From the IMG/VR virus record IMGVR_UViG_2526164632_000021: a DNA stretch of 11,115 bases; one strand, given 5' to 3'. The position numbers were made by a program, and so were the translations under genes. The DNA comes from a virus. Taxonomy: Duplodnaviria > Heunggongvirae > Uroviricota > Caudoviricetes. Shown here piece after piece: positions 1,218 through 11,115 of the stretch; position 1 is the first letter of the stretch, and every line of letters begins with the position of its first letter. Below the pieces are notes generated by a model that was given only the letters and a program-made list of their open reading frames with translations, searched no databases and was not told the origin of the DNA.

Positions 1218-2531
1218 TCATTCTCCTGTTCTGCCTGTATCACTGCCCACTTCATCCAGCCCCTTAACATCCTGCCACGGCCCGTCACCAAACCTGACCT
1301 GCAAATGCCGAAAAAAACCCTGAACCCGTGTGGTATCTTTGGGGTCAAGAAAGGTCAGTCCGGTGATGAGTGCGCCATCTGTATCCGGGAACCAGCCATG
1401 GCTGTTTGTCTCAATAATGTTTCCCGGCCCCAGACGGAACCGTATTTGCGTCTCCCCCGGGTCGCCCTTCGGCCCCTGAGGTCCGGTTGCCCCCACCGGG
1501 CCAGCCGCACCTGTTTCTCCTTTCGGTCCCTGTGGGCCAGCCGGGCCTGCCGCACCGGTATCTCCCTTTGGACCCTGTGGACCTGCATTTCCCGTCAGAC
1601 CGGTCTCTCCCCGCTCTCCCCTGTCGCCTTTCGGTCCCTGTGGTCCTGCCGGACCAGCATCACCTGCCGGTCCCCGTTCGCCGGTTGCCCCGACAGGGCC
1701 GGTGTCACCACGCTCTCCCTTATCCCCCTTCGGCCCCTGAGGGCCAGCGGGCCCCTGTTCCCCCTTTGGCCCGGGAGGTCCCACCACGGTGGGGATTCGG
1801 TTTACGGCGTCTTCCGCCGCTATCCTGCTTTGTTCCGCTGACTGTGCGCTTTCTGCTGACTCCCGGGCTTTTTCTGCTGCGGTCGTTGCATCCCTGGCTG
1901 CATTACCGGCTGCACTTTCTGCCGTCTTTCTTGACAATTCAGCATCTGCTGCACTTTGTGATGACTCACTGGCTTTTTGAGCGGCCGCAGAAGCCGAGGA
2001 CGAGGACGCATCCTCTGACTGCTTTGCTGAGGCTGCACTTTCTGCCGCCTGCCGGGCTGACTCCGATGCCTCCCCTGCTGAAGTGTCAGCATTTGCAGCG
2101 CTCTCTTCTGCCTGACTGGCTGATATGCCGGCATTCCTCGCTGACGTCTCCGCCTCTCCGGCATTCTTCTTCGCCTCCTCTGCGTTACGCACCACCTCTT
2201 CCACCATCAGTTCAAAACGGCGCAGTGCCTCAGGACGGGCATCATCCTCCGTCATGGCACCGAGAAAATCATTCAGCGTACCGGGTCGGGAATCTTCATA
2301 CACGGTGATGGTCCCGGCATGTGAAGGCGGAAAACCTTCAACCAGCAGGGTGACGCTGTACTGACCATGCTCAACATCCATGCTGTAACGTCCGGCTTCA
2401 TCCGGATTTTCAGAGGCCACCGTGTTCACCACCACCGTGCTGCTGGTTCGTCTGGCCTTCAGCACAATGGTGCAGTTCTGTACTGGTTTTCCTGTGCCAT
2501 CTTTAAGCACGCCAGAAATTTTTACTGTCAT
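1218..2531 (-). CDS. stf: Side tail fibre protein (lambda Stf-like), 437 aa, with a conserved N-terminal virion-attachment region, an Ala/Ser/Glu-rich segment, a collagen-like Gly-X-Y repeat and a short C-terminal domain
   Basis: N-terminus [28 protein letters not shown]...[19 protein letters not shown]...[16 protein letters not shown] matches lambda Stf (orf-401) as I recall it. Residues about 251-360 are uninterrupted G-X-Y triplets ([26 protein letters not shown]...). It sits downstream of lom as in lambda. A GGUGGA Shine-Dalgarno lies upstream of the ATG. Confidence 0.85.
1452..1781 (-). repeat. Collagen-like Gly-X-Y triplet repeat (about 36 triplets) inside stf; the DNA is correspondingly repetitive (ggnccn units)
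   Basis: Coordinates derived from protein residues 251-360 of the 1218-2531 ORF. The plus strand shows repeated ccctgaggncc / ggaccagc-type units. Confidence 0.8.
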
Positions 2532-2682: not shown

Positions 2683-3282
2683 TCAGAAACGGTATCCGAT
2701 ACCAACAATAAATGCATCCGTTCGCCAGTCGCCACTACCGGAACCTTCATAAGCAAGGTCAATGGTCACGGATTCGGTCGGGTTAAACTGCACGCCAGCC
2801 CCCCACGCCAGAGACGTGTTGCTGTGGCGACCGTCATCACTTCCGGTCAGCACATCGTGCGTTTTCCCCTTGTTGTCAGTTACGCGGAGATAATCCCCGG
2901 AGAAAGTCGACACACGGCTGTAAGCCACACCCACCATCGCATACGCGCTGAACCATTCATTCACGCGCACAGACGGCCCCGCCATCACGCTGAACCAGCG
3001 GTTACGCACGGAATCTTCATGCCAGCGGGTATCGCTGTAGTGCGTTTTTTGCTCATCCTCAGCATTGGCATAACTGAAGGACGTAATCAGCCCCAGCGCG
3101 TCCGTAAACTCATAACGGTATTTCACGTTAATCCCGTTCAGATTATCGCTGCCGGGAGCGTTCGTACGGGCATGAAGATACCCCGCGCTCAGTGTGGACT
3201 GATGTTCAGACGCCCATGCAGGCGCACCGGATACGGACAGACAGATGGCTGCGGACAAAATGGCTGCACAAACTTTACGCAT
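2683..3282 (-). CDS. lom: Lom outer-membrane beta-barrel protein (Ail/Lom/PagC family), 199 aa, with an N-terminal signal peptide
   Basis: Translation MRKVCAAILSAAICLSVSGAPAWASEHQSTLSAGYLHARTNAPGSDNLNGINVKYRYEFTD...AYEGSGSGDWRTDAFIVGIGYRF is near-identical along its length to lambda Lom as I recall it, with a C-terminal aromatic residue typical of outer-membrane barrels. It is immediately downstream of J as in lambda. Shine-Dalgarno GAGAGG lies 5 nt before the ATG. Confidence 0.92.
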   Translation of the reverse strand: MRKVCAAILSAAICLSVSGAPAWASEHQSTLSAGYLHARTNAPGSDNLNGINVKYRYEFTDALGLITSFSYANAEDEQKTHYSDTRWHEDSVRNRWFSVMAGPSVRVNEWFSAYAMVGVAYSRVSTFSGDYLRVTDNKGKTHDVLTGSDDGRHSNTSLAWGAGVQFNPTESVTIDLAYEGSGSGDWRTDAFIVGIGYRF

Positions 3283-3349: not shown

Positions 3350-6300
3350 TCAGCTGATACTGATGCCTGCGGTGGCTTTCTTCATCACCACAACCAGCAA
3401 ATCGCTGATACTTGCTGTGGGATACCAGTTATTCACCAGCCATGCTGACACCGAAAACTCCAGCGTCATGTGACCGTGACCGGCAGGCATATCAATAACA
3501 CCACTGTAAATCAGCGTATTATCCAGCGCGGTACGGTTATAAATTTCAGCACCGTTTTTCCGCACTATCAGACGGCATGAGGAGTAAATATCAGTATGCT
3601 CTCTCTCATGCTTAGCGCCACTGAATGCCACCGCCGGAATAACAATTTGCCGGTCAAACGGCTGATCGTCATAAACCCTGACGGTAATGGTCCCTGATGG
3701 CCACCGCTCCGGTGCACGGGAGTCCCGGGGGAAAGCTTTGCCCACTGTTTTAACGAGATCGCCTTCAATCTGGTTGGCGGACAGTTTTCCCAGAACCCGA
3801 CAGTTTTCGTTAATCGTGACGTTGTTGAGCGTCCCGGAGTTCGCATTCACGTTACCGCTGATATCGGCATTTTTCGCCGTCAGCCGCCCGTCCGGTGTCA
3901 GGGAAAATGCCGGAGGATTACCGCCGCTGGTAATGGTGGGAGCCGTCAGGTATTTCAGGAACACTTCGTTCATGAATATCTGATCGCCCTGACCAACAAA
4001 CATCGGCTTTGTGTTGCCATTCGCAGGATTAATCATCGCAATCCGGTCAGCAGCCAGAAGCACCTGACTCTGCATACCTGCTGGCGTATTCTCAATACCG
4101 GCTCCGATACCCGCAATATAAAGGCGTCCGTCCTGCATCTGCTGCAGTTTCACGGCCCACATGCTGTTCAGGTTATTATTTGTATCAACCTGAACTTTCT
4201 GTATCTGCTGGATTGCCGCACTCTGGTCTTCCAGTTTTTTATTGACGGTCTGCGTGATTTCATTGCTGACATTCGTAATGGACGTCCTGATTTCAGCCAA
4301 GTCCGGCGCAAGCTGACCGTTATCAATCTGCGTCCACAGCTCCTGGGCCAGATGTGTTTTCCCGATTTCTCCTTTGAAAAAATCCAGGTAACCTTCCGCA
4401 TCATCGCTCGCCCGACCGACAGCCTCCACGAATGCCGATTTGCCAACGGTGTTCACACTGCGAACGTAAAAATAATAATCATGGCCCGGTTTGATATTGA
4501 TACTGGCGGCTATCCAGTACAGCGCCGTACCAAGATAACGCGCGCTGGTTTCAACCTGCCTGATATCAGCAATCCGTTTTTCCGAGAACCAGAACTCAAA
4601 CTGTACCGTCGGATCATAAACCGCAAAATGCGGCGTGGCGGTTATCTGAAAATAGCCCGGCGTCAGCTCAATCCGCGACGGTGCTGCCGGTGCGGCAATC
4701 CGGAACGATACCGATGCCGGATCGCCCTGCTGTCCCCACGCATTTACCGCCCGGACTGTCAGCCTGTAATTTCCCAGCGCCAGTTGCGTGAAGCGGTATG
4801 TAGTTTCCGTCGTCCTGGCCGTGCTGACCAGCCGCTCACTGCCATCGTCCGCTGCCACGGTCAGGCGAAGCAGGAAGCTCACGCCCTTCACCACCTTCGG
4901 CGTGTCCCAGCGCGCCAGCACCTGATATTCCCCACTGTCTGCGGTGACTTCTGCGGTCAGGTGCTGCACCGCTGGCGGCGTGACACCATTCACCGTGCCG
5001 CTCTGGTCGCCGTCAAAGTGCGCCCCGTTATCCACGATGGCCTCTTTTTCCGGTACATGCTGCACGGCGGTGATGGCATACGTGCCGTCGTCGTTCTCAC
5101 GGATACTCACGCAGCGGAACAGGCGCTGGCGCAGCATCGGCAGCTTCAGCCCCCACACGCTGTACTCGGCAACGCCGTCAGGAACACGGCTCACTTTTAC
5201 CTTCACGCCATCAGTGACGGACTGAACCTCCACGCTGACCGGATTGCCACTTCCGTCAACCAGGCTTATCAGCGTGGTGCCGGAAGATGGCAGCGTGATT
5301 TCACGGTCGAGCGTCAGCGTCCGGGTCTGGCTGTTCACCGCCAGCACGCGCCCGCCGGTGCTGATACCGGCATAGTCATCATCACAGATTTCAATGACAT
5401 CGCCCGGTACATGGCGAAGCCCTTCTGCACCCACGCTGAAGTCCACGGTCTGCGTTTCCAGCAGTTCCGTTTTAATCAGCCACAGCCCGGCGCGGTGCAC
5501 CTGCCCCCGGCTGGTACAGCCAAAGGCATCCATCTTCGTGACGTGACGACCGTAACGGGCAATGGCCTGCGTATCCTCCACAAGCTCTGTCGCCGTCTCC
5601 CAGCCGTTGTTCGGGTCAATCCAGTTCACCTCAACGGCATTATGGCGGTCCTTCAGGGCGCTGAAGCTGTAGCGGAACGGCGCGCCATCATCCGGCATCA
5701 CCACATTACTGCGGTTATAGGTCCACACCTTATCTGATGGTCGGTCCTGCACGAACGTCAGCGTCTGCCCGTTCCATACCGGCATACAGCGCATCGCCGA
5801 GCAGAAATCACTGAGCACATCCCACGCCTTGCGCTGTGTGGTCAGGTACGCATTACAGGTAATGCGCGGCTCCGTGCCGCCAAAGCCATCCGGCACTGAC
5901 TGGTCGCAGTACTGGCCGATGACATACAGCGCCCATTTGTCCACATCCGCCGCACCAAGACGTTTCCCCATGCCGTAGCGTGGATGGGTCAGCATATCCC
6001 ACAGACACCAGGCCATGTTGTTGCTGTATGCCGGTTTAAACGTTCCGTCCCAGATACCGCTGTATTGCCGCGTCTGCGGGTTATAATTCGACGGCACCTG
6101 CAGAATACGCCCGCGCAGATGATAATTACGGCTCACCTGCTGGCTGCCGAACTGCTCCGAGTCCACCTGCACGCCGACCAGTGCCGTGTTCGGGTAGCCC
6201 TGTTTCACATCGATGATTTCGGTGTATGACGACCAGAGCGTTTTGTTCTGCAGCTGGTCTGTGGTGCTGTCAGGCGTCATCCTGCGCATCCGGATATTAA

Positions 6301-6829
6301 ACGGGCGCGGCGGCAGGTTATCCACCACCACCGAGGCCAGATACTGCGAGGTGGTTTTGCCCTTAATGGTGATGTCTTTTTCCGTCACCCAGCCACCGTT
6401 ACGCTGTATCTGAACCAGCAGGCGGACTTCCGACGGATTCCGGTCCCCCTTTGAGGTGGTTTCCACCAGTGCCTGCACACCGAAGGTAAAGCGCAGACGG
6501 TCGATGTTTGCCGACGTGATGGTCCGGGTGATCGGCGTGTCATATTTCACTTCCGTACCCAGCACCGTCTCGGAGCCGGAGGATTCAAATCCCTCCGGCG
6601 GTGTCTGCTCCTGCTCACCTGCCCGGAACACCACCGTGACACCGGATATATTGGTATTCCCCTCACTGTCCAGCACCGGCGTACTGTTCAGCAGCACGCT
6701 TTTTAATCCGTCCACCGGACCTTCAACCGGCCCTTCGCTGATGGCATCGATCACACTCAGCAGCTGCGTGGACTTCAGGTTGTCCCTCGCTTCGCGCGGG
6801 GTATGCCCCTTACTGCTTCCTTTACCCAT
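3350..6829 (-). CDS. J: Tail tip host-specificity protein J (central tail fibre, lambda gpJ family), 1159 aa
   Basis: The ORF is uninterrupted and of the same size class as lambda J (1132 aa as I recall). It sits between I and lom, and conserved gpJ-like N-terminal and central blocks are recognisable (e.g. ...[19 protein letters not shown]...). Shine-Dalgarno GAGG lies 6-7 nt upstream of the ATG. Confidence 0.95.
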
Positions 6830-6841
6830 TCCTCACACTCC

Positions 6842-6872
6842 ATAAACAACAAAGCCGCCCAAAAGGCGGCTC
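6842..6872 (-). terminator. Putative intrinsic terminator on the minus strand directly downstream of the lipoprotein gene and upstream of the J ribosome-binding site
   Basis: Minus-strand RNA reads AGCCGCC-UUUUG-GGCGGCU followed by UUGUUGUUUAU. The 7-bp GC stem is plus 6853-6859 paired with 6865-6871, with a U-rich tail. Confidence 0.55.
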
Positions 6873-6895
6873 ATGAGTTACGACAGGATTAACTA

Positions 6896-7234
6896 TTATT
6901 TACATGCATTAACACTATCAGCAAAAATTTTTGGCGTTAATGCTGGTACACGTTCATAAAGAGTAAAACTACTGCCATTTCCTGCTTTTTTGATATCAAG
7001 CACAACATCATATCCCCCCATAGCCTGTGGAACTAAAAGGCTTACCCCATTCTCAATAGGAAGGGATGTTATAGGTGTTCCATTACCAGCCCATTGTCTG
7101 GATATGCAGCCTGACAATTCATCAATATTTTTTAATGAATTACCTTCCATTACAGGTTTTCCGGATTTTACGTAATCCAAAGATTTACATCCTGTTAAGG
7201 CAATAATCGTGCAGAATAAAATCGTTTTGTTCAT
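6896..7234 (-). CDS. Small predicted outer-membrane lipoprotein (112 aa from the ATG start), in a low-GC island inserted in the I-J gap; function unknown, candidate superinfection-exclusion or defence factor
   Basis: N-terminus MNKTILFCTIIALTGC-KS has a positively charged n-region, a hydrophobic core and an L-T-G-C lipobox; the residue after the lipidated Cys is Lys, not Asp. The region 6880-7307 is visibly AT-rich against flanks of about 55-60% GC. It is followed by its own terminator hairpin. The ORF-track version begins 4 codons upstream at a TTG (7246); I prefer the ATG at 7232-7234. Confidence 0.7.
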   Translation of the reverse strand: MNKTILFCTIIALTGCKSLDYVKSGKPVMEGNSLKNIDELSGCISRQWAGNGTPITSLPIENGVSLLVPQAMGGYDVVLDIKKAGNGSSFTLYERVPALTPKIFADSVNACK

Positions 7235-7307
7235 ATAGCTAACCAATAGAATAATTATCAGTGTTCGATATAAATATTAAATCAGTTAGAACATGAGTAA
7301 AATAATA
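7235..7307 (-). promoter_or_regulatory. AT-rich putative promoter region for the lipoprotein gene, in the gap between the I stop and the lipoprotein start
   Basis: Minus strand reads ...GTTCTAACTGATTTAATATTTATATCGAACACTGATAATTATTCTATTGGTTAGCTAT-ATG. It contains -10-like hexamers (GATAAT preceded by TG, also TATATC) and AT-rich upstream sequence. No Shine-Dalgarno is obvious. This is not validated. Confidence 0.3.
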
Positions 7308-7949
7308 TTACCGCCCAATTACCACAACCTGACCACCATCCCCTTCATCTGCCGTGCTGATCTCCTGAGATGCCACACGTGACCCCACGCGCATTTCACC
7401 GTACAGAACAGGCAGGACATTGCCCTGGGCAACCATGTTATCCAGTGAGGAGAAATAGGTGTTCTGTTTGCCGTTATCCGTTGTCTGTGTACGGGGAGTT
7501 CTGGCTTTCGGTGCCAGCATCTGCGCCACACCACCAAGCGTCATCGCCGCACCCATTGAAAAGAGAATGTCACTGAAAGCGATACTGATCCCCGGCATCC
7601 AGATTGCCGTAGCAATCAACGCCGCACCCAGCACCGCCTGAAACACACCGCCACTTTTTGCTCCCGCAAGACGCGGCACGATGTGGATCACGGCACCATT
7701 TGCCAGCGGCTCATTAAGACGGGATGATAATTCGGTTTCTCCTGCATCCCGCCCGGCAATCCGTACCTGATACCAGCCATCGCTCAGTTTCTGACGAAAC
7801 GCCGGGAGCTGTGTGGCCAGTGCGCGGATGGCTTCAGCCCCCGTTTTCACACGAAGGTCGATGCGGCGGCCAAATCGTTGCAAATCCCCGTAAAGGCAGA
7901 TGCGCGCCATGCCCGGTGACGCCAGAGGGAGTGTGTGCGTCGCTGCCAT
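7308..7949 (-). CDS. I: Tail tip assembly protein I (lambda gpI family), 213 aa
   Basis: Translation MAATHTLPLASPGMARICLYGDLQRFGRRIDLRVKTGAEAIRALATQLPAFRQKLSDGWYQVRIAGRD...MLAPKARTPRTQTTDNGKQNTYFSSLDNMVAQGNVLPVLYGEMRVGSRV.SQEISTADEGDGGQVVVIGR matches lambda I at both ends as I recall it. Its 5' end overlaps the K 3' end by 103 nt, as I recall for lambda K/I. Confidence 0.93.
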   Translation of the reverse strand: MAATHTLPLASPGMARICLYGDLQRFGRRIDLRVKTGAEAIRALATQLPAFRQKLSDGWYQVRIAGRDAGETELSSRLNEPLANGAVIHIVPRLAGAKSGGVFQAVLGAALIATAIWMPGISIAFSDILFSMGAAMTLGGVAQMLAPKARTPRTQTTDNGKQNTYFSSLDNMVAQGNVLPVLYGEMRVGSRVASQEISTADEGDGGQVVVIGR

Positions 7950-8446
7950 TTGTCGGTATACCTCTCTCGTTTGCTCAGTTGTTCAGGAATATGGTGCAGC
8001 AGCTCGCCATCACCACAGTAAATAGCGGCATGATTCGGCACCGATGAACCAAAGCAGCACAGCAGCACATCGCCCGGCTGCGCCGCTGACAACGGCACCT
8101 GATACAGCCCCGTTGCCTCCAGATTATCCAGATAGAGATTCTGACCGTGACGCCACCAGTCATCCTCACGATGAAAGTCCGGCATCTCAATCCCCGCCAG
8201 ATGGTAAGCATCCCGGAACAGTGTGTAACAGTCCGTCACCCCGTACTCAAAGCGCCGCCCGGTGAGATGCGGCACACAGCGGAACTTGTGAATCGCCCCC
8301 CGGCAGACCAGCCACCACGGCAAATCGCTCTGCACCTGTAGCCGCCGGTCAGCCTCACTCAGCCAGGGCAGACCACCGGGGTGGCTGTGGACCAGCGCCA
8401 CAATCTCACCCTGCATCTCTGCCTGCAGCCAGTCCTCCGGAGCCAT
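7847..8446 (-). CDS. K: Tail tip assembly protein K (lambda gpK family), 199 aa, with JAB/MPN-like and NlpC/P60-like motifs
   Basis: The length equals my recollection of lambda K (199 aa). It contains HSHPGGLPWLSEAD (a JAMM-type H-x-H...S..D motif) and a downstream Cys/His pair (TDCYTL...NHAAIY) consistent with an NlpC/P60 fold. Position and overlap with I match lambda. Confidence 0.9.
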   Translation of the reverse strand: MAPEDWLQAEMQGEIVALVHSHPGGLPWLSEADRRLQVQSDLPWWLVCRGAIHKFRCVPHLTGRRFEYGVTDCYTLFRDAYHLAGIEMPDFHREDDWWRHGQNLYLDNLEATGLYQVPLSAAQPGDVLLCCFGSSVPNHAAIYCGDGELLHHIPEQLSKRERYTDKWQRRTHSLWRHRAWRASAFTGICNDLAAASTFV

Positions 8447-8544: not shown

Positions 8545-9195
8545 ATGAATGCACGAAAAGCGGTACTGGCAGATAATCCAGAATTGATCCTGCGTGTGCT
8601 ACAGCTGAGATTTGACGAGTCACTGTCGTACCCGCGCATTTCTGCGCAGACTGGTGTCAGCAAAACCGCCATTTTTTCTCTGGTGAGGCGATTTCACCAG
8701 GTATTCACTGACTGGCCTCTTTCCGGTGAATATTCCTGCGGGCAACTGGCCCGGGCTCTTTTCCCGGGGCGATACCCTTCAGCCCCGACCGTGACTCAGC
8801 CTGTGAAAGCAGAGAAACCCCGCCGGAACCGATTTTCACCGGAGTTTAAATGGAGACTGGTTCAGCAAACTCTTTTACCCGGTGCCTGTGTCGCACAAAT
8901 AGCTCGAGAGAATGGAATTAACGATAACCTGCTCTTTAACTGGCGGCATCTCTGGCGTAACGGTGGCCTGCAACCGCCCGGCGAACATGAAACATCGCTA
9001 CTTCCCGTGACGTTAACTCCGGAGCCGGATAATAAAATCCCGGCACCAGTGCAGATACCTGAACAGATAAATACACTGCCAGACAGTCTGTGCTGCGAGC
9101 TGGTTCTGCCGGCCGGAACTCTCAGGCTGAAAGGTGAACTGACACCGGCGTTATTACAGACACTTATCCGCGAAATGAAAGGGAGCAGCCACTGA
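8545..9195 (+). CDS. tnpA: IS66-family accessory protein TnpA (Orf1), 216 aa, with helix-turn-helix regions
   Basis: It is the first ORF inside the IS66 left end, with Shine-Dalgarno AAGGA about 8 nt upstream. The segment RRNRFSPEFKWRLVQQTLLPGACVAQIARENGINDNLLFNWRHLW resembles the transposase-type HTH of IS66 Orf1. Its stop overlaps the tnpB start (ATGA at 9192-9195). Confidence 0.8.
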   Translation: MNARKAVLADNPELILRVLQLRFDESLSYPRISAQTGVSKTAIFSLVRRFHQVFTDWPLSGEYSCGQLARALFPGRYPSAPTVTQPVKAEKPRRNRFSPEFKWRLVQQTLLPGACVAQIARENGINDNLLFNWRHLWRNGGLQPPGEHETSLLPVTLTPEPDNKIPAPVQIPEQINTLPDSLCCELVLPAGTLRLKGELTPALLQTLIREMKGSSH

Positions 9196-9542
9196 TGATA
9201 TCTCTCCCTGCCGGTTCGCGTATCTGGCTGGTTGCCGGTATCACCGATATGCGAAATGGCTTTAACGGCCTGGCCTCAAAAGTTCAGAACGTCCTGAAGG
9301 ATGACCCGTTCTCCGGGCATCTGTTCATCTTCCGCGGACGCCGGGGTGACCAGATAAAAGTGCTGTGGGCTGACAGTGACGGACTGTGCCTCTTCACCAA
9401 ACGCCTGGAGCGGGGCCGCTTCGTCTGGCCGGTCACCCGCGATGGAAAGGTTCACCTTACTCCGGCTCAGTTGTCCATGCTTCTCGAAGGCATCGACTGG
9501 AAGCACCCGAAACGAACGGAACGCGCTGGCATCCGCATATAA
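9195..9542 (+). CDS. tnpB: IS66-family accessory protein TnpB (Orf2), 115 aa
   Basis: Translation MISLPAGSRIWLVAGITDMRNGFNGLASKVQNVLKDDPFSGHLFIFRGRRGDQIKVLWADSDGLCLFTKRLERGRFVWP matches the highly conserved IS66 TnpB family signature as I recall it. Confidence 0.9.
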   Translation: MISLPAGSRIWLVAGITDMRNGFNGLASKVQNVLKDDPFSGHLFIFRGRRGDQIKVLWADSDGLCLFTKRLERGRFVWPVTRDGKVHLTPAQLSMLLEGIDWKHPKRTERAGIRI

Positions 9543-9561
9543 CCCGTTGTAAAGTGAGGAT

Positions 9562-11115
9562 ATGGACACCTCACTTGCTCATGAGAATGCCCGCCTGCGG
9601 GCACTGTTGCAGACGCAACAGGACACCATCCGCCAGATGGCGAAATACAACCGCCTGCTCTCACAGCGGGTGGCGGCTTATGCTTCCGAAATCAACCGGC
9701 TGAAGGCGCTGGTTGCGAAACTGCAGCGCATGCAGTTCGGTAAAAGCTCAGAAAAACTTCGCGCTAAAACCGAACGGCAGATACAGGAAGCACAGGAGCG
9801 AATCAGCGCACTTCAGGAAGAAATGGCGGAAACGCTGGGTGAGCAATATGACCCGGTACTGCCATCCGCCCTGCGCCAGTCTTCAGCCCGTAAACCGTTA
9901 CCGGCCTCACTTCCCCGTGAAACCCGGGTCATCCGGCCGGAAGAGGAATGCTGCCCGGCCTGTGGTGGTGACCTCAGTCCTCTGGGGTGTGATGTGTCAG
10001 AGCAACTGGAGCTTATCAGCAGCGCCTTTAAGGTTATCGAAACACAACGTCCGAAACTGGCCTGTTGTCGGTGCGACCATATCGTGCAGGCAACAGTACC
10101 TTCAAAACCCATTGCACGCAGTTATGCCGGAGCGGGGCTTCTGGCCCATGTTGTTACCGGGAAATATGCAGACCATCTGCCGTTATACCGCCAGTCAGAA
10201 ATATACCGTCGCCAGGGCGTGGAGCTGAGCCGCGCCACGCTGGGGCGCTGGACAGGTGCCGTTGCTGAACTGCTGGAGCCGCTGTATGACGTCCTGCGCC
10301 AGTATGTGCTGATGCCCGGTAAAGTCCATGCTGATGATATCCCCGTCCCGGTCCAGGAGCCGGGCAGCGGTAAAACCCGGCCGCCCGGCTGTGGGTCTAC
10401 GTCCGTGATGACCGTAACGCCGGTTCGGAAATGCCCCCGGCGGTCTGGTTCGCGTACTCACCGGACCGGAAAGGTATCCATCCACAAAATCATCTGGCCG
10501 GTTACAGCGGTGTGCTTCAGGCCGATGCTTACGGTGGTTACCGGGTGTTATACGAATCCGGCAGAATAACGGAAGCCGCGTGTATGGCTCATGCCCGGAG
10601 AAAATTCCACGATGTGCATGCAAGAGTGCCCACCGACATCACCACGGAAGCCCTGCAGCGTATCGGTGAACTGTATGCCATAGAGGCAGAAGTCCGGGGA
10701 TGTACAGCAGAACAGCGTCTGGCGGCAAGAAAAGCCAGAGCTGCGCCACTGATGCAGTCACTGTATGACTGGATACAGACTCAGATGAAAACACTGTCGC
10801 GTCACTCGGATACGGCAAAAGCGTTCGCATACCTGCTGAAACAGTGGGATGGCCTGAACGTGTACTGCAGTAATGGCTGGGTGGAAATCGACAACAACAT
10901 CGCAGAGAACGCCTTACGGGGAGTGGCCGTAGGCCGGAAAAACTGGCTGTTCGCGGGTTCCGACAGCGGTGGCGAACATGCGGCGGTGTTGTACTCGCTG
11001 ATCGGCACATGCCGTCTGAACAATGTGGAACCAGAAAAATGGCTGCGTTACGTCATTGAGCATATCCAGGATTGGCCGGCAAACCGGGTACGCGATCTGT
11101 TGCCCTGGAAAGTTG
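9562..11115 (+). pseudogene. tnpC: IS66-family transposase TnpC carrying an apparent -1 frameshift near 10380; 3'-partial at the window edge
   Basis: Frame 1 (9562-10569) encodes the TnpC N-terminus with a leucine-zipper-like region and a CxxC...CxxC zinc-finger-like motif, up to ...PGSGKTR. The reading then continues in frame 0 from about 10380 as [79 protein letters not shown]... to the window end. That downstream frame matches the tnpC fragment at 751-1179. One nucleotide appears to be missing around 10381. Confidence 0.8.

Follow-up and report, generated by a model that had tools for sequence, protein, structure and literature searches.

Why does a lambda-like prophage carry a small lipoprotein gene between two genes of its tail? 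The question is raised by an 11,115 nt stretch of viral DNA (IMG/VR record IMGVR_UViG_2526164632_000021; the whole stretch is referred to below as the window), in which the tail genes all lie on the minus strand and the tail assembly gene I is separated from the tail tip and host-specificity gene J by 478 nt. An earlier note on this DNA had set the gap against the roughly 60 bp found in lambda, and had pointed to an AT-rich unit within it that holds an open reading frame (ORF) of 112 codons; the gap, the composition and the ORF were all confirmed. It is highly probable that the unit is a genuine lipoprotein gene, that it was inserted here, and that its family is mobile.

The I-J insertion and its gene

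The gap between I and J is 60 nt in lambda (I ends at 15444 and J starts at 15505), and is of the same length in PhiR49_1. Alignment of the window to these two empty sites showed that the extra DNA (about 418 nt) begins immediately after the stop codon of I and, since lambda and PhiR49 have 60 bp where the window has 478 bp, these ~418 bp represent inserted cargo. The GC (guanine plus cytosine) content falls to 0.30–0.40 across positions 6800–7300, compared to 0.55–0.60 on either side, and that of the lipoprotein gene is 0.36, against 0.58 in the 1-kb flanks. The insertion shows two marks of a moron, as defined from HK97 and HK022 (Juhala et al. 2000, as cited in PMC3594210): it is extra DNA relative to collinear related phages, and its base composition is unlike that of the neighbouring genes.

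The insert was found in 0 of the 110 phage-isolate records whose sequence matches the I and J flanks, and in 337 of 5,426 complete E. coli genomes (~6%), at 97.6–100% nucleotide identity and with at most three copies in any one genome. Among the carriers are S88, PMV-1, an avian pathogenic E. coli (APEC) O1:K1:H7 strain, O104:H4 and O111 strains, and ATCC 11775. The same arrangement is present in E. coli FDAARGOS_1059 (100% identity over the 751 nt compared), where the RefSeq annotation lists gpJ, a 'hypothetical protein' (WP_001332187.1), tail assembly protein I, and a K pseudogene interrupted by an element of the IS66 family of insertion sequences (IS). The host element of the window is a decayed lambda-like E. 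coli prophage, in which IS elements break K, the tail fibre gene and the terminase gene; the lipoprotein ORF is nevertheless intact in this defective prophage.

The encoded protein of 112 aa, the sole product of the insert, starts with MNKTILFCTIIALTGCKSLDYVKSG (MNKTILFCTIIALTGC followed by KSLD) and ends with VNACK. Its first 16 residues form a signal peptide of n-h-c type, read directly from the sequence, with a positively charged n-region (MNK), the h-region TILFCTIIA and the lipobox LTGC, the h-region counting 10 residues with a mean hydropathy of 2.68. The lipobox conforms to the pattern [LVI][ASTVI][GAS]C, and position +2, where Asp would be a Lol-avoidance signal, is occupied by Lys. 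The lipoprotein is predicted to be sorted to the outer membrane, and its mature part would comprise 97 aa (10.3 kDa, isoelectric point 7.9).

Residues 1–112 matched positions 1–118 of the 118-position profile of PHROG 914, a family annotated as of unknown function (E 7.3e-33). A word-indexed search gave 20 clusters only (from E. coli, Jejubacter, Kluyvera, Klebsiella and Enterobacter), and an exhaustive profile search gave 125 clusters at E ≤ 1e-3, nearly all of 105–120 aa. In an alignment of 65 diverse members the sole invariant columns are Cys16, Cys43 and Cys111, with Pro27, Trp48 and Gly63 nearly invariant. A lipobox-like motif is found in 62 of these members, and Asp at +2 in none; the residue there is A, S, T, G, L, E, V, K, I or M. 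The lipoprotein signal with Lys after the lipidated Cys, which had been noticed earlier along with two further cysteines capable of pairing, is thus borne out by the family as well as by the window protein.

The AlphaFold2 model of the protein (mean predicted local distance difference test score, pLDDT, 83.7, and about 90 over the mature part; predicted template modelling score, pTM, 0.76) has the order beta-alpha-beta4-alpha and is helix-grip-like. Its first helix starts at residue 19, so that structure begins three residues past the lipidated Cys. Of the other two cysteines, Cys43 is part of the first long helix and Cys111 of the C-terminal one, and the two probably form a disulfide bond. 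The PHROG match, the conservation across the family and the confident model show that the gene is genuine and not a chance reading frame.

Comparisons with other databases returned little. Pfam gave no family at E ≤ 10 for the window protein and no relevant one among the 65 relatives; the sole NCBIfam match was VirB7 (E 0.08), confined to the signal peptide; and a search of PDB sequences with the family profile gave nothing at E ≤ 10. The label 'YceK', attached by IMG to one relative, is unbacked by any Pfam match and was set aside. The fold matches listed (Flpp3/DUF3568, DUF302, KA1, the BamC N-domain, START and Bet v 1) all have 4–16% identity. Flpp3/DUF3568 (PDB 6pny, 2mu4 and 9nlt) is 6–9% identical, without a Pfam DUF3568 match, and many unrelated proteins score similarly; judged from the model, the likeness is one of fold class only and not of homology or shared function. 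A library of viral structures gave a single match at E ≤ 0.001, an uncharacterised protein of Pseudomonas phage phiAH14a (E 1e-5, template modelling score 0.83, 25% identity).

Distribution, transcription signals and linkage to J

In E. coli prophages the insert occupies the I|J gap. Relatives were found mainly in the gap between K and I, in Klebsiella, Citrobacter, Kluyvera, Hafnia, Serratia and several IMG/VR prophages, comprising three types of tail module. This K|I slot is also where a family member is found in Fraca (Hendrixvirinae) and LMessi, two E. coli phages that can be cultivated (hidden Markov model E ~1e-24); Fraca has a shorter annotated homologue without a signal peptide. Against 50,697 phage records, tblastn with the window protein gave no match at 1e-5, and with the Klebsiella relative (E ≤ 0.01) it gave Fraca and LMessi only. 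A scan of species-representative genomes with alignment A2 returned one Kluyvera locus only. The Yersinia member lies immediately upstream of I, after a large insertion of Arc/Ant/Bro/KilA type, and the Enterobacter member lies between the T chaperone and tape-measure genes of an HK97-like prophage (the T|H slot). The suggestion that the I-J gap is a variable cargo site agrees with these findings: the gap is empty in lambda and PhiR49, and relatives sit in the K|I and T|H gaps.

Some members are found away from tail genes. One metagenomic prophage carries its copy at the prophage end, beside the integrase. A small Rep3/ParA/resolvase plasmid from a metagenome (L101, 1393–1740; L numbers denote the loci compared) encodes a member of the wider family, 29% identical in alignment A3, and a 150-kb E. 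coli plasmid from a blood isolate has a 100% identical copy (NZ_CP082081.1, 71460–71795). These plasmid and prophage-end copies argue for a protein that works independently within the cell, and against a role in tail assembly. The GC content of the gene is below that of its flanks in eight of the nine other prophage or phage contexts measured, the exception being the Yersinia locus L084.

Other, unrelated lipoprotein genes were also observed just upstream of I. In LMessi (L104, 3147–3494; 115 aa), where it is the ORF before the family member, and in L069 (6409–6855; 148 aa), such a gene stands in tandem with a PHROG 914 member. Phage phiAH14a, the source of the structural match, has a different lipoprotein (gene 83, 140 aa) between K- and I-type tail genes, which its authors likened to Cor (PMC4936722). 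Lipoprotein cargo in general seems to dock at the K|I junction of siphophage tail operons. In prophages of Yersinia enterocolitica (L084–L086, ~3400–8000), a block of 4–5 kb lies between K and I, directly upstream of the lipoprotein gene. It holds genes for Arc-like repressors and Bro-N domain proteins and, varying with the locus, for KilA-N/ANT or pRha-type antirepressors. The block recalls immI of P22, and a SocA/Panacea domain gene is present in one copy as well.

The GC hairpin upstream of the J ribosome-binding site had been taken for the terminator of the inserted unit, and this is not supported. On the minus strand it reads GAGCCGCC-TTTT-GGGCGGCTT, then TGTTGTTTAT (with a longer tail, GAGCCGCC-TTTT-GGGCGGCTT TGTTGTTTATGGAG). 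A homologous hairpin, AAACCGCC-TGCG/TCCG-GGCGGTTT TGTC(A/G)TTTATGGAG, is present in the empty gap of lambda (L108, 766–793) and PhiR49, and the stem differences between the window and lambda are paired changes (GAG...CTT versus AAA...TTT). In N15, the record marks a terminator stem-loop at this position (L095, 3308–3331), where its genes 20 and 21 meet. The hairpin is therefore native to the I-J gap and was not brought by the insert. It might stabilise the RNA or act as a terminator that Q antitermination overrides, or it may be a scar or docking site of cargo cassettes. Lambda-like phages retain such a GC hairpin with a T-rich tail in their short I-J gap, inside the late operon. The relatives in the K|I and T|H slots each have their own GC hairpin and T-run. 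A search of Rfam gave a sub-threshold match to GcvB only (19.6 bits, where the gathering score is 42; E 0.07), which was ascribed to the AT-richness and the hairpin.

An independent promoter had also been proposed. A consensus scan detected no sense-strand sigma-70-like site at threshold upstream of the gene in the window, L007, L002 or L081, although a weak or non-sigma-70 promoter could escape such a scan. By eye, the leader of 73 nt offers a match of 8/12 at best (TTTACT at 7301–7296, a spacer of 16–17 nt, and TAATAT or AATATT), and no clear Shine-Dalgarno sequence was seen in this leader. In the K|I slot the relatives examined have an upstream gap of roughly 30–40 nt and a good Shine-Dalgarno sequence, and at one Yersinia locus the lipoprotein gene abuts the preceding ORF; the gene is co-oriented with the tail genes in every tail-operon context. 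Given the short upstream gaps and the absence of a detected promoter, co-transcription with the late tail operon is the safest inference. The layout had been described as that of a classic moron, which stands as regards extra DNA and deviating GC; no promoter of its own was detected, and the hairpin that follows the gene in the I-J slot has a homologue in the empty gap. At the Enterobacter locus (L007, 7960–8000), the lipoprotein gene has GGAGG as its Shine-Dalgarno sequence, and a CCTCC lying upstream (CCTCCTTACTTCTGGAGG) can base-pair with it, which suggests that translation of the gene may be masked.

If the lipoprotein were matched to the receptor used by the neighbouring J, then its allele might be expected to follow the receptor-binding end of J. 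The allele was surveyed in 60 copies (59 E. coli IMG/VR loci and the window). The protein is 98–100% identical throughout, and the ORF of 112 codons is intact in 57 and frameshifted in three. The insert and the last ~150 nt of I show 98–100% nucleotide identity across loci; the middle of I is mosaic, with mean identity down to 84% and 62% in the most divergent locus. A uniform insert beside a mosaic I points to one recent allele spreading by homologous recombination. The ends of J (last 150 aa) were classified in the 37 copies whose J is complete, from 36 IMG/VR loci and the window: 25 are of the window type, six of a type 41% identical to it, three of a type 59% identical, two are unalignable and one is truncated. 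Conversely, the window J end occurs at 99% identity in VT1-Sakai, the PPompW prophages, PhiR55_1 and others, and tblastn found the lipoprotein gene in no record of the phage collection that holds the VT1-Sakai and PPompW J ends. The lipoprotein allele does not co-vary with the receptor-binding end of J.

The window J is 83% identical to lambda J overall, with strong divergence in the last ~150 aa. This rules out that it ends like lambda J, which binds LamB, and since the end is unlike that of lambda, no receptor can be named. Swapping of the J tip module was seen as well, with at least four C-terminal receptor-binding ends, unrelated or weakly related to one another, on J proteins that are 93–100% identical in their N-terminal 300 aa and in residues 401–800 (window 3350–3800; L015, L038, L032 and others).

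Candidate functions

Small disulfide-bonded outer-membrane lipoproteins encoded beside tail genes are known to exclude phages from the periplasmic side (PMC9586334, PMC12685063, PMC11893012). T5 Llp binds FhuA from that side and reshapes its surface loops so that the receptor-binding protein cannot dock (PMC9586334), and Rtp45 binds LptDE and reshapes surface loops likewise (PMC12685063). Among the mEp phages, Lpp021 of mEp021 excludes phages that use OmpA, and Lpp010 of mEp010 excludes those that use LamB, including lambda; according to the authors of that study, no lipoprotein of a lambdoid phage had been reported to exclude lambda (PMC11893012).

By analogy, our best single guess for the window protein, offered tentatively as plausible but somewhat short of probable, is envelope-level phage exclusion. 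Transcription would occur at least in lytic growth, by antiterminated late transcription. The prolipoprotein would be processed by Lgt and Lsp at Cys16 and would come to reside in the inner leaflet of the outer membrane, where the near absence of a tether would hold a compact alpha+beta domain of 97 aa against the membrane, its two helices stapled by the putative Cys43-Cys111 disulfide. There it may attach, on the periplasmic side, to an outer-membrane protein or complex needed by incoming phages and so block adsorption or DNA delivery, possibly also sparing progeny from loss on cell debris. The target would not be dictated by the receptor-binding domain of the neighbouring J. In favour of this guess are the low-GC insertion, the conserved lipoprotein signals, the confident fold with its very short N-terminal linker, the several slots, the plasmid and prophage-end copies, an ORF kept intact amid mosaic flanking genes and in a defective prophage, and the precedents just named. 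PHROG 914 could also be a new structural class of envelope superinfection-exclusion factor, of ~10 kDa, disulfide-stapled and helix-grip-like, which moves between tail-operon gaps and plasmids, is not matched to a particular receptor-binding domain as Llp, Cor, Rtp45 or the mEp Lpp proteins are, acts on a shared outer-membrane or periplasmic step of J-type tails or on a common outer-membrane complex, and would be the first from lambdoid prophages of pathogenic E. coli lineages; this larger reading is doubtful as a whole.

The likenesses to characterised systems are of kind and position. T5 Llp (PDB 7qjf, 8a60) is likewise a periplasm-facing outer-membrane lipoprotein that has a disulfide and scarcely any tether and whose gene adjoins those for tail or receptor-binding proteins; its disulfide is functionally important, and Llp serves as the mechanistic model for exclusion (PMC9586334). 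Llp pairs with pb5, and the mEp Lpp types track the receptor, whereas the PHROG 914 allele is not coupled to the J end. Rtp45 (structure 9rps_D in the PDB), Lpp021 and Lpp010 are also lipoproteins of E. coli siphophages, with genes that lie in the tail or structural cluster, but they are precursors of 72–82 aa encoded downstream of J on the opposite strand, and their similarity is confined to the signal peptide. Cor (phi80, N15 gene 24, HK022, T1), which acts on FhuA, is a lysogenic-conversion lipoprotein from the tail-fibre region of lambdoid and N15-type phages, but has 78 aa, is encoded downstream of J, and aligns in its signal peptide alone. Bor/Iss of lambda shares the form of a ~100-aa outer-membrane lipoprotein carried as accessory cargo of a lambdoid prophage; however, the window protein has no match to Pfam Lambda_Bor, and bor is located near the lysis genes, on the other strand. 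HK97 gene 15 is the archetypal tail-operon moron, located between the T chaperone and tape-measure genes and with chromosomal homologues, and gp15 mediates superinfection exclusion (PMC3594210). The Enterobacter relative occupies the identical slot, but gp15, which belongs to the YebO family, is a small protein of the inner membrane and not a lipoprotein.

Several results weigh against exclusion as the function. The family profile aligned with T5 Llp, N15 Cor, Rtp45, lambda Bor, mEp010 gp116 (Lpp010) and mEp021 gp81 (Lpp021) in the signal peptide or lipobox alone and not in the mature part, and the PDB structures of Llp and Rtp45 are absent among the fold matches listed, which together place the protein outside every characterised exclusion-lipoprotein family. 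Of the families proposed for comparison in the earlier note, Cor, Llp and Bor thus gave no match to the mature part, and Pfam gave none to Bor/Iss or TraT; its impression that this is not Bor, Llp or Cor, and may be an uncharacterised protein, proved correct. No anti-phage defence family was matched in PADLOC-DB 2.0 at E ≤ 10, and no paper on the PHROG 914 family was found. The helix-grip/TBP-like fold class to which the model belongs is generic and often lipid- or ligand-binding, and the mature length of 97 aa compares with ~55–65 aa in the known exclusion lipoproteins. Shimwellia blattae has a non-prophage chromosomal copy (L087, 8001–8339) between a yidB-like gene and ecotin, with a GC of 0.62, above that of its flanks (0.53–0.55); it may be a domesticated or an ancestral host form. 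To these are added the lack of co-variation with the J end and the lack of a detected promoter: expression in lysogens, which classic prophage exclusion needs, is no more than possible. The family is uncharacterised, while the general category, accessory lipoproteins of temperate phages, is already familiar.

An alternative is that the protein serves the lysogen as a Bor/Iss- or Lom-like fitness or virulence lipoprotein, giving serum resistance, adhesion or envelope robustness with no role in phage conflict, which we consider rather unlikely. Its architecture resembles that of lambda Bor, which is also an outer-membrane lipoprotein of ~100 aa from a lambdoid prophage (PMC3594210); the gene is two genes from lom, on a prophage that also carries tccP2 and espV; its ORF is intact although the prophage is defective; the 337 carriers among the 5,426 E. 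coli genomes include S88, APEC O1:K1:H7, O104:H4 and O111 strains; and the top fold match, Flpp3, is called a Francisella virulence determinant in its PDB entry. However, homology to Bor/Iss or TraT is lacking (no Pfam match, and the signal peptide alone aligns with Bor), no promoter for lysogenic expression was detected, most members lie in late tail operons of non-pathogen genera, and the gene is missing from most E. coli. The proposal of the earlier note, a mask for the receptor that the prophage's own tail recognises by the adjacent J (or Stf), has in its favour that the gene lies directly beside J and that 25 of the 37 copies with a complete J have the window J end, and it has precedents in T5 llp beside oad, in Rtp45 and in the mEp Lpp types. 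It is made improbable by the allele survey, in which the 98–100% identical allele stands beside three further classes of J C-terminus (41% identical, 59% identical and unalignable), at least four classes in all, and the window J end (99%) is found in phages without the gene; moreover, relatives lie beside J proteins of 1,061 to more than 3,300 aa, and one plasmid member is without any J.

A role as immunity protein or inhibitor against a non-phage attack on the envelope (a colicin, a type VI secretion system (T6SS) effector acting on peptidoglycan or lipid, a lysozyme or a protease) seems equally improbable. It would suit a small, disulfide-bonded protein that is predicted to face the periplasm and has spread on phages and a plasmid; the Shimwellia copy is beside ecotin, a periplasmic protease inhibitor, and in most relatives the gene directly follows K, which has an NlpC/P60 peptidase domain. 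However, the peptidase domains of K probably act on I in the cytoplasm and not on the cell wall, the fold and sequence matches listed include no lysozyme inhibitor or T6SS immunity protein, and no cognate toxin gene was seen alongside. Still less probable is a helper in the lytic cycle that benefits the carrying phage alone, such as an aid to lysis or release made from the late transcript only. Its co-orientation within the late operon, the short upstream gaps and good Shine-Dalgarno sequences in the K|I slots, and the lack of a detected promoter would all be expected of such a helper, but nearly all close lambdoid relatives are viable without the gene, copies on a plasmid and at a prophage end lie outside late operons, and the protein is unlike o-spanins and is encoded far from the lysis cassette.

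Prophage cargo that remodels the cell envelope influences which phages can infect a strain, and bears on phage therapy and on the spread of Shiga toxin (Stx) and other converting phages. If exclusion is the true function of the protein, then a structurally new family, untied to a single receptor-binding protein, would be added to the few lipoproteins of known mechanism; if there is no phage phenotype, it would be one more accessory lipoprotein of unknown benefit. Fraca and LMessi are cultivable and carry relatives, making the question directly testable.

Layout of the locus

The coordinates of the insertion, the lipoprotein gene and the neighbouring tail genes are listed in Table 1.

Table 1. 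Features of the 11,115 nt window (positions counted from its first letter).
Feature	Position	Strand	Remarks
I-J gap	6830..7307	-	478 nt
Stretch in place of 18 nt of the lambda/PhiR49 gap	6873..7307	-	empty-site alignment; net insertion ~418 nt
AT-rich leader, I stop codon to lipoprotein ATG	7235..7307	-	73 nt
Lipoprotein gene	6896..7234	-	112 codons and TAA, ATG start; translation, PHROG 914 match
Signal peptide and lipobox, residues 1–16, MNKTILFCTIIALTGC	7187..7234	-	read from sequence
Cys16 codon	7187..7189	-	lipidation residue, Lys at +2
Cys43 codon	7106..7108	-	invariant; helix 37–50; alignments A2/A3, model
Cys111 codon	6902..6904	-	invariant; C-terminal helix 103–111; inferred disulfide partner of Cys43
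GC hairpin (9 pairs) and T-rich tail	6842..6872	-	just upstream of the J ribosome-binding site
Tail assembly gene I	7308..7949	-	upstream flank
Tail tip/host-specificity gene J	3350..6829	-	downstream flank
K	7847..8446	-	tail gene
lom	2683..3282	-	tail region
Tail-fibre N-terminal fragment	1218..2531	-	

An 8-nt direct repeat, TTGGGCGG (minus strand), brackets the insert, with one copy in the 3' arm of the hairpin (6855–6862) and the other at the end of I (7311–7318). It was considered as a signature of the insertion, but the copy in I differs from lambda at synonymous sites only and the repeat is probably due to chance; alternatively, it could have been microhomology used in the insertion.

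The prophage is located at a tRNA-Ser gene, and the effector genes tccP2 and espV are on board as pseudogenes. Elements of the IS66 family lie on the plus strand of the window at 8545–11115 and 1–1179, and in L001 at 11865–14480, 21846–24434 and 36971–39305. K is cut at its 5' end by an IS679-like copy, the tail-fibre gene is broken by ISCro1 just past the part for the N-terminal domain, and the terminase gene is interrupted by ISEc22.

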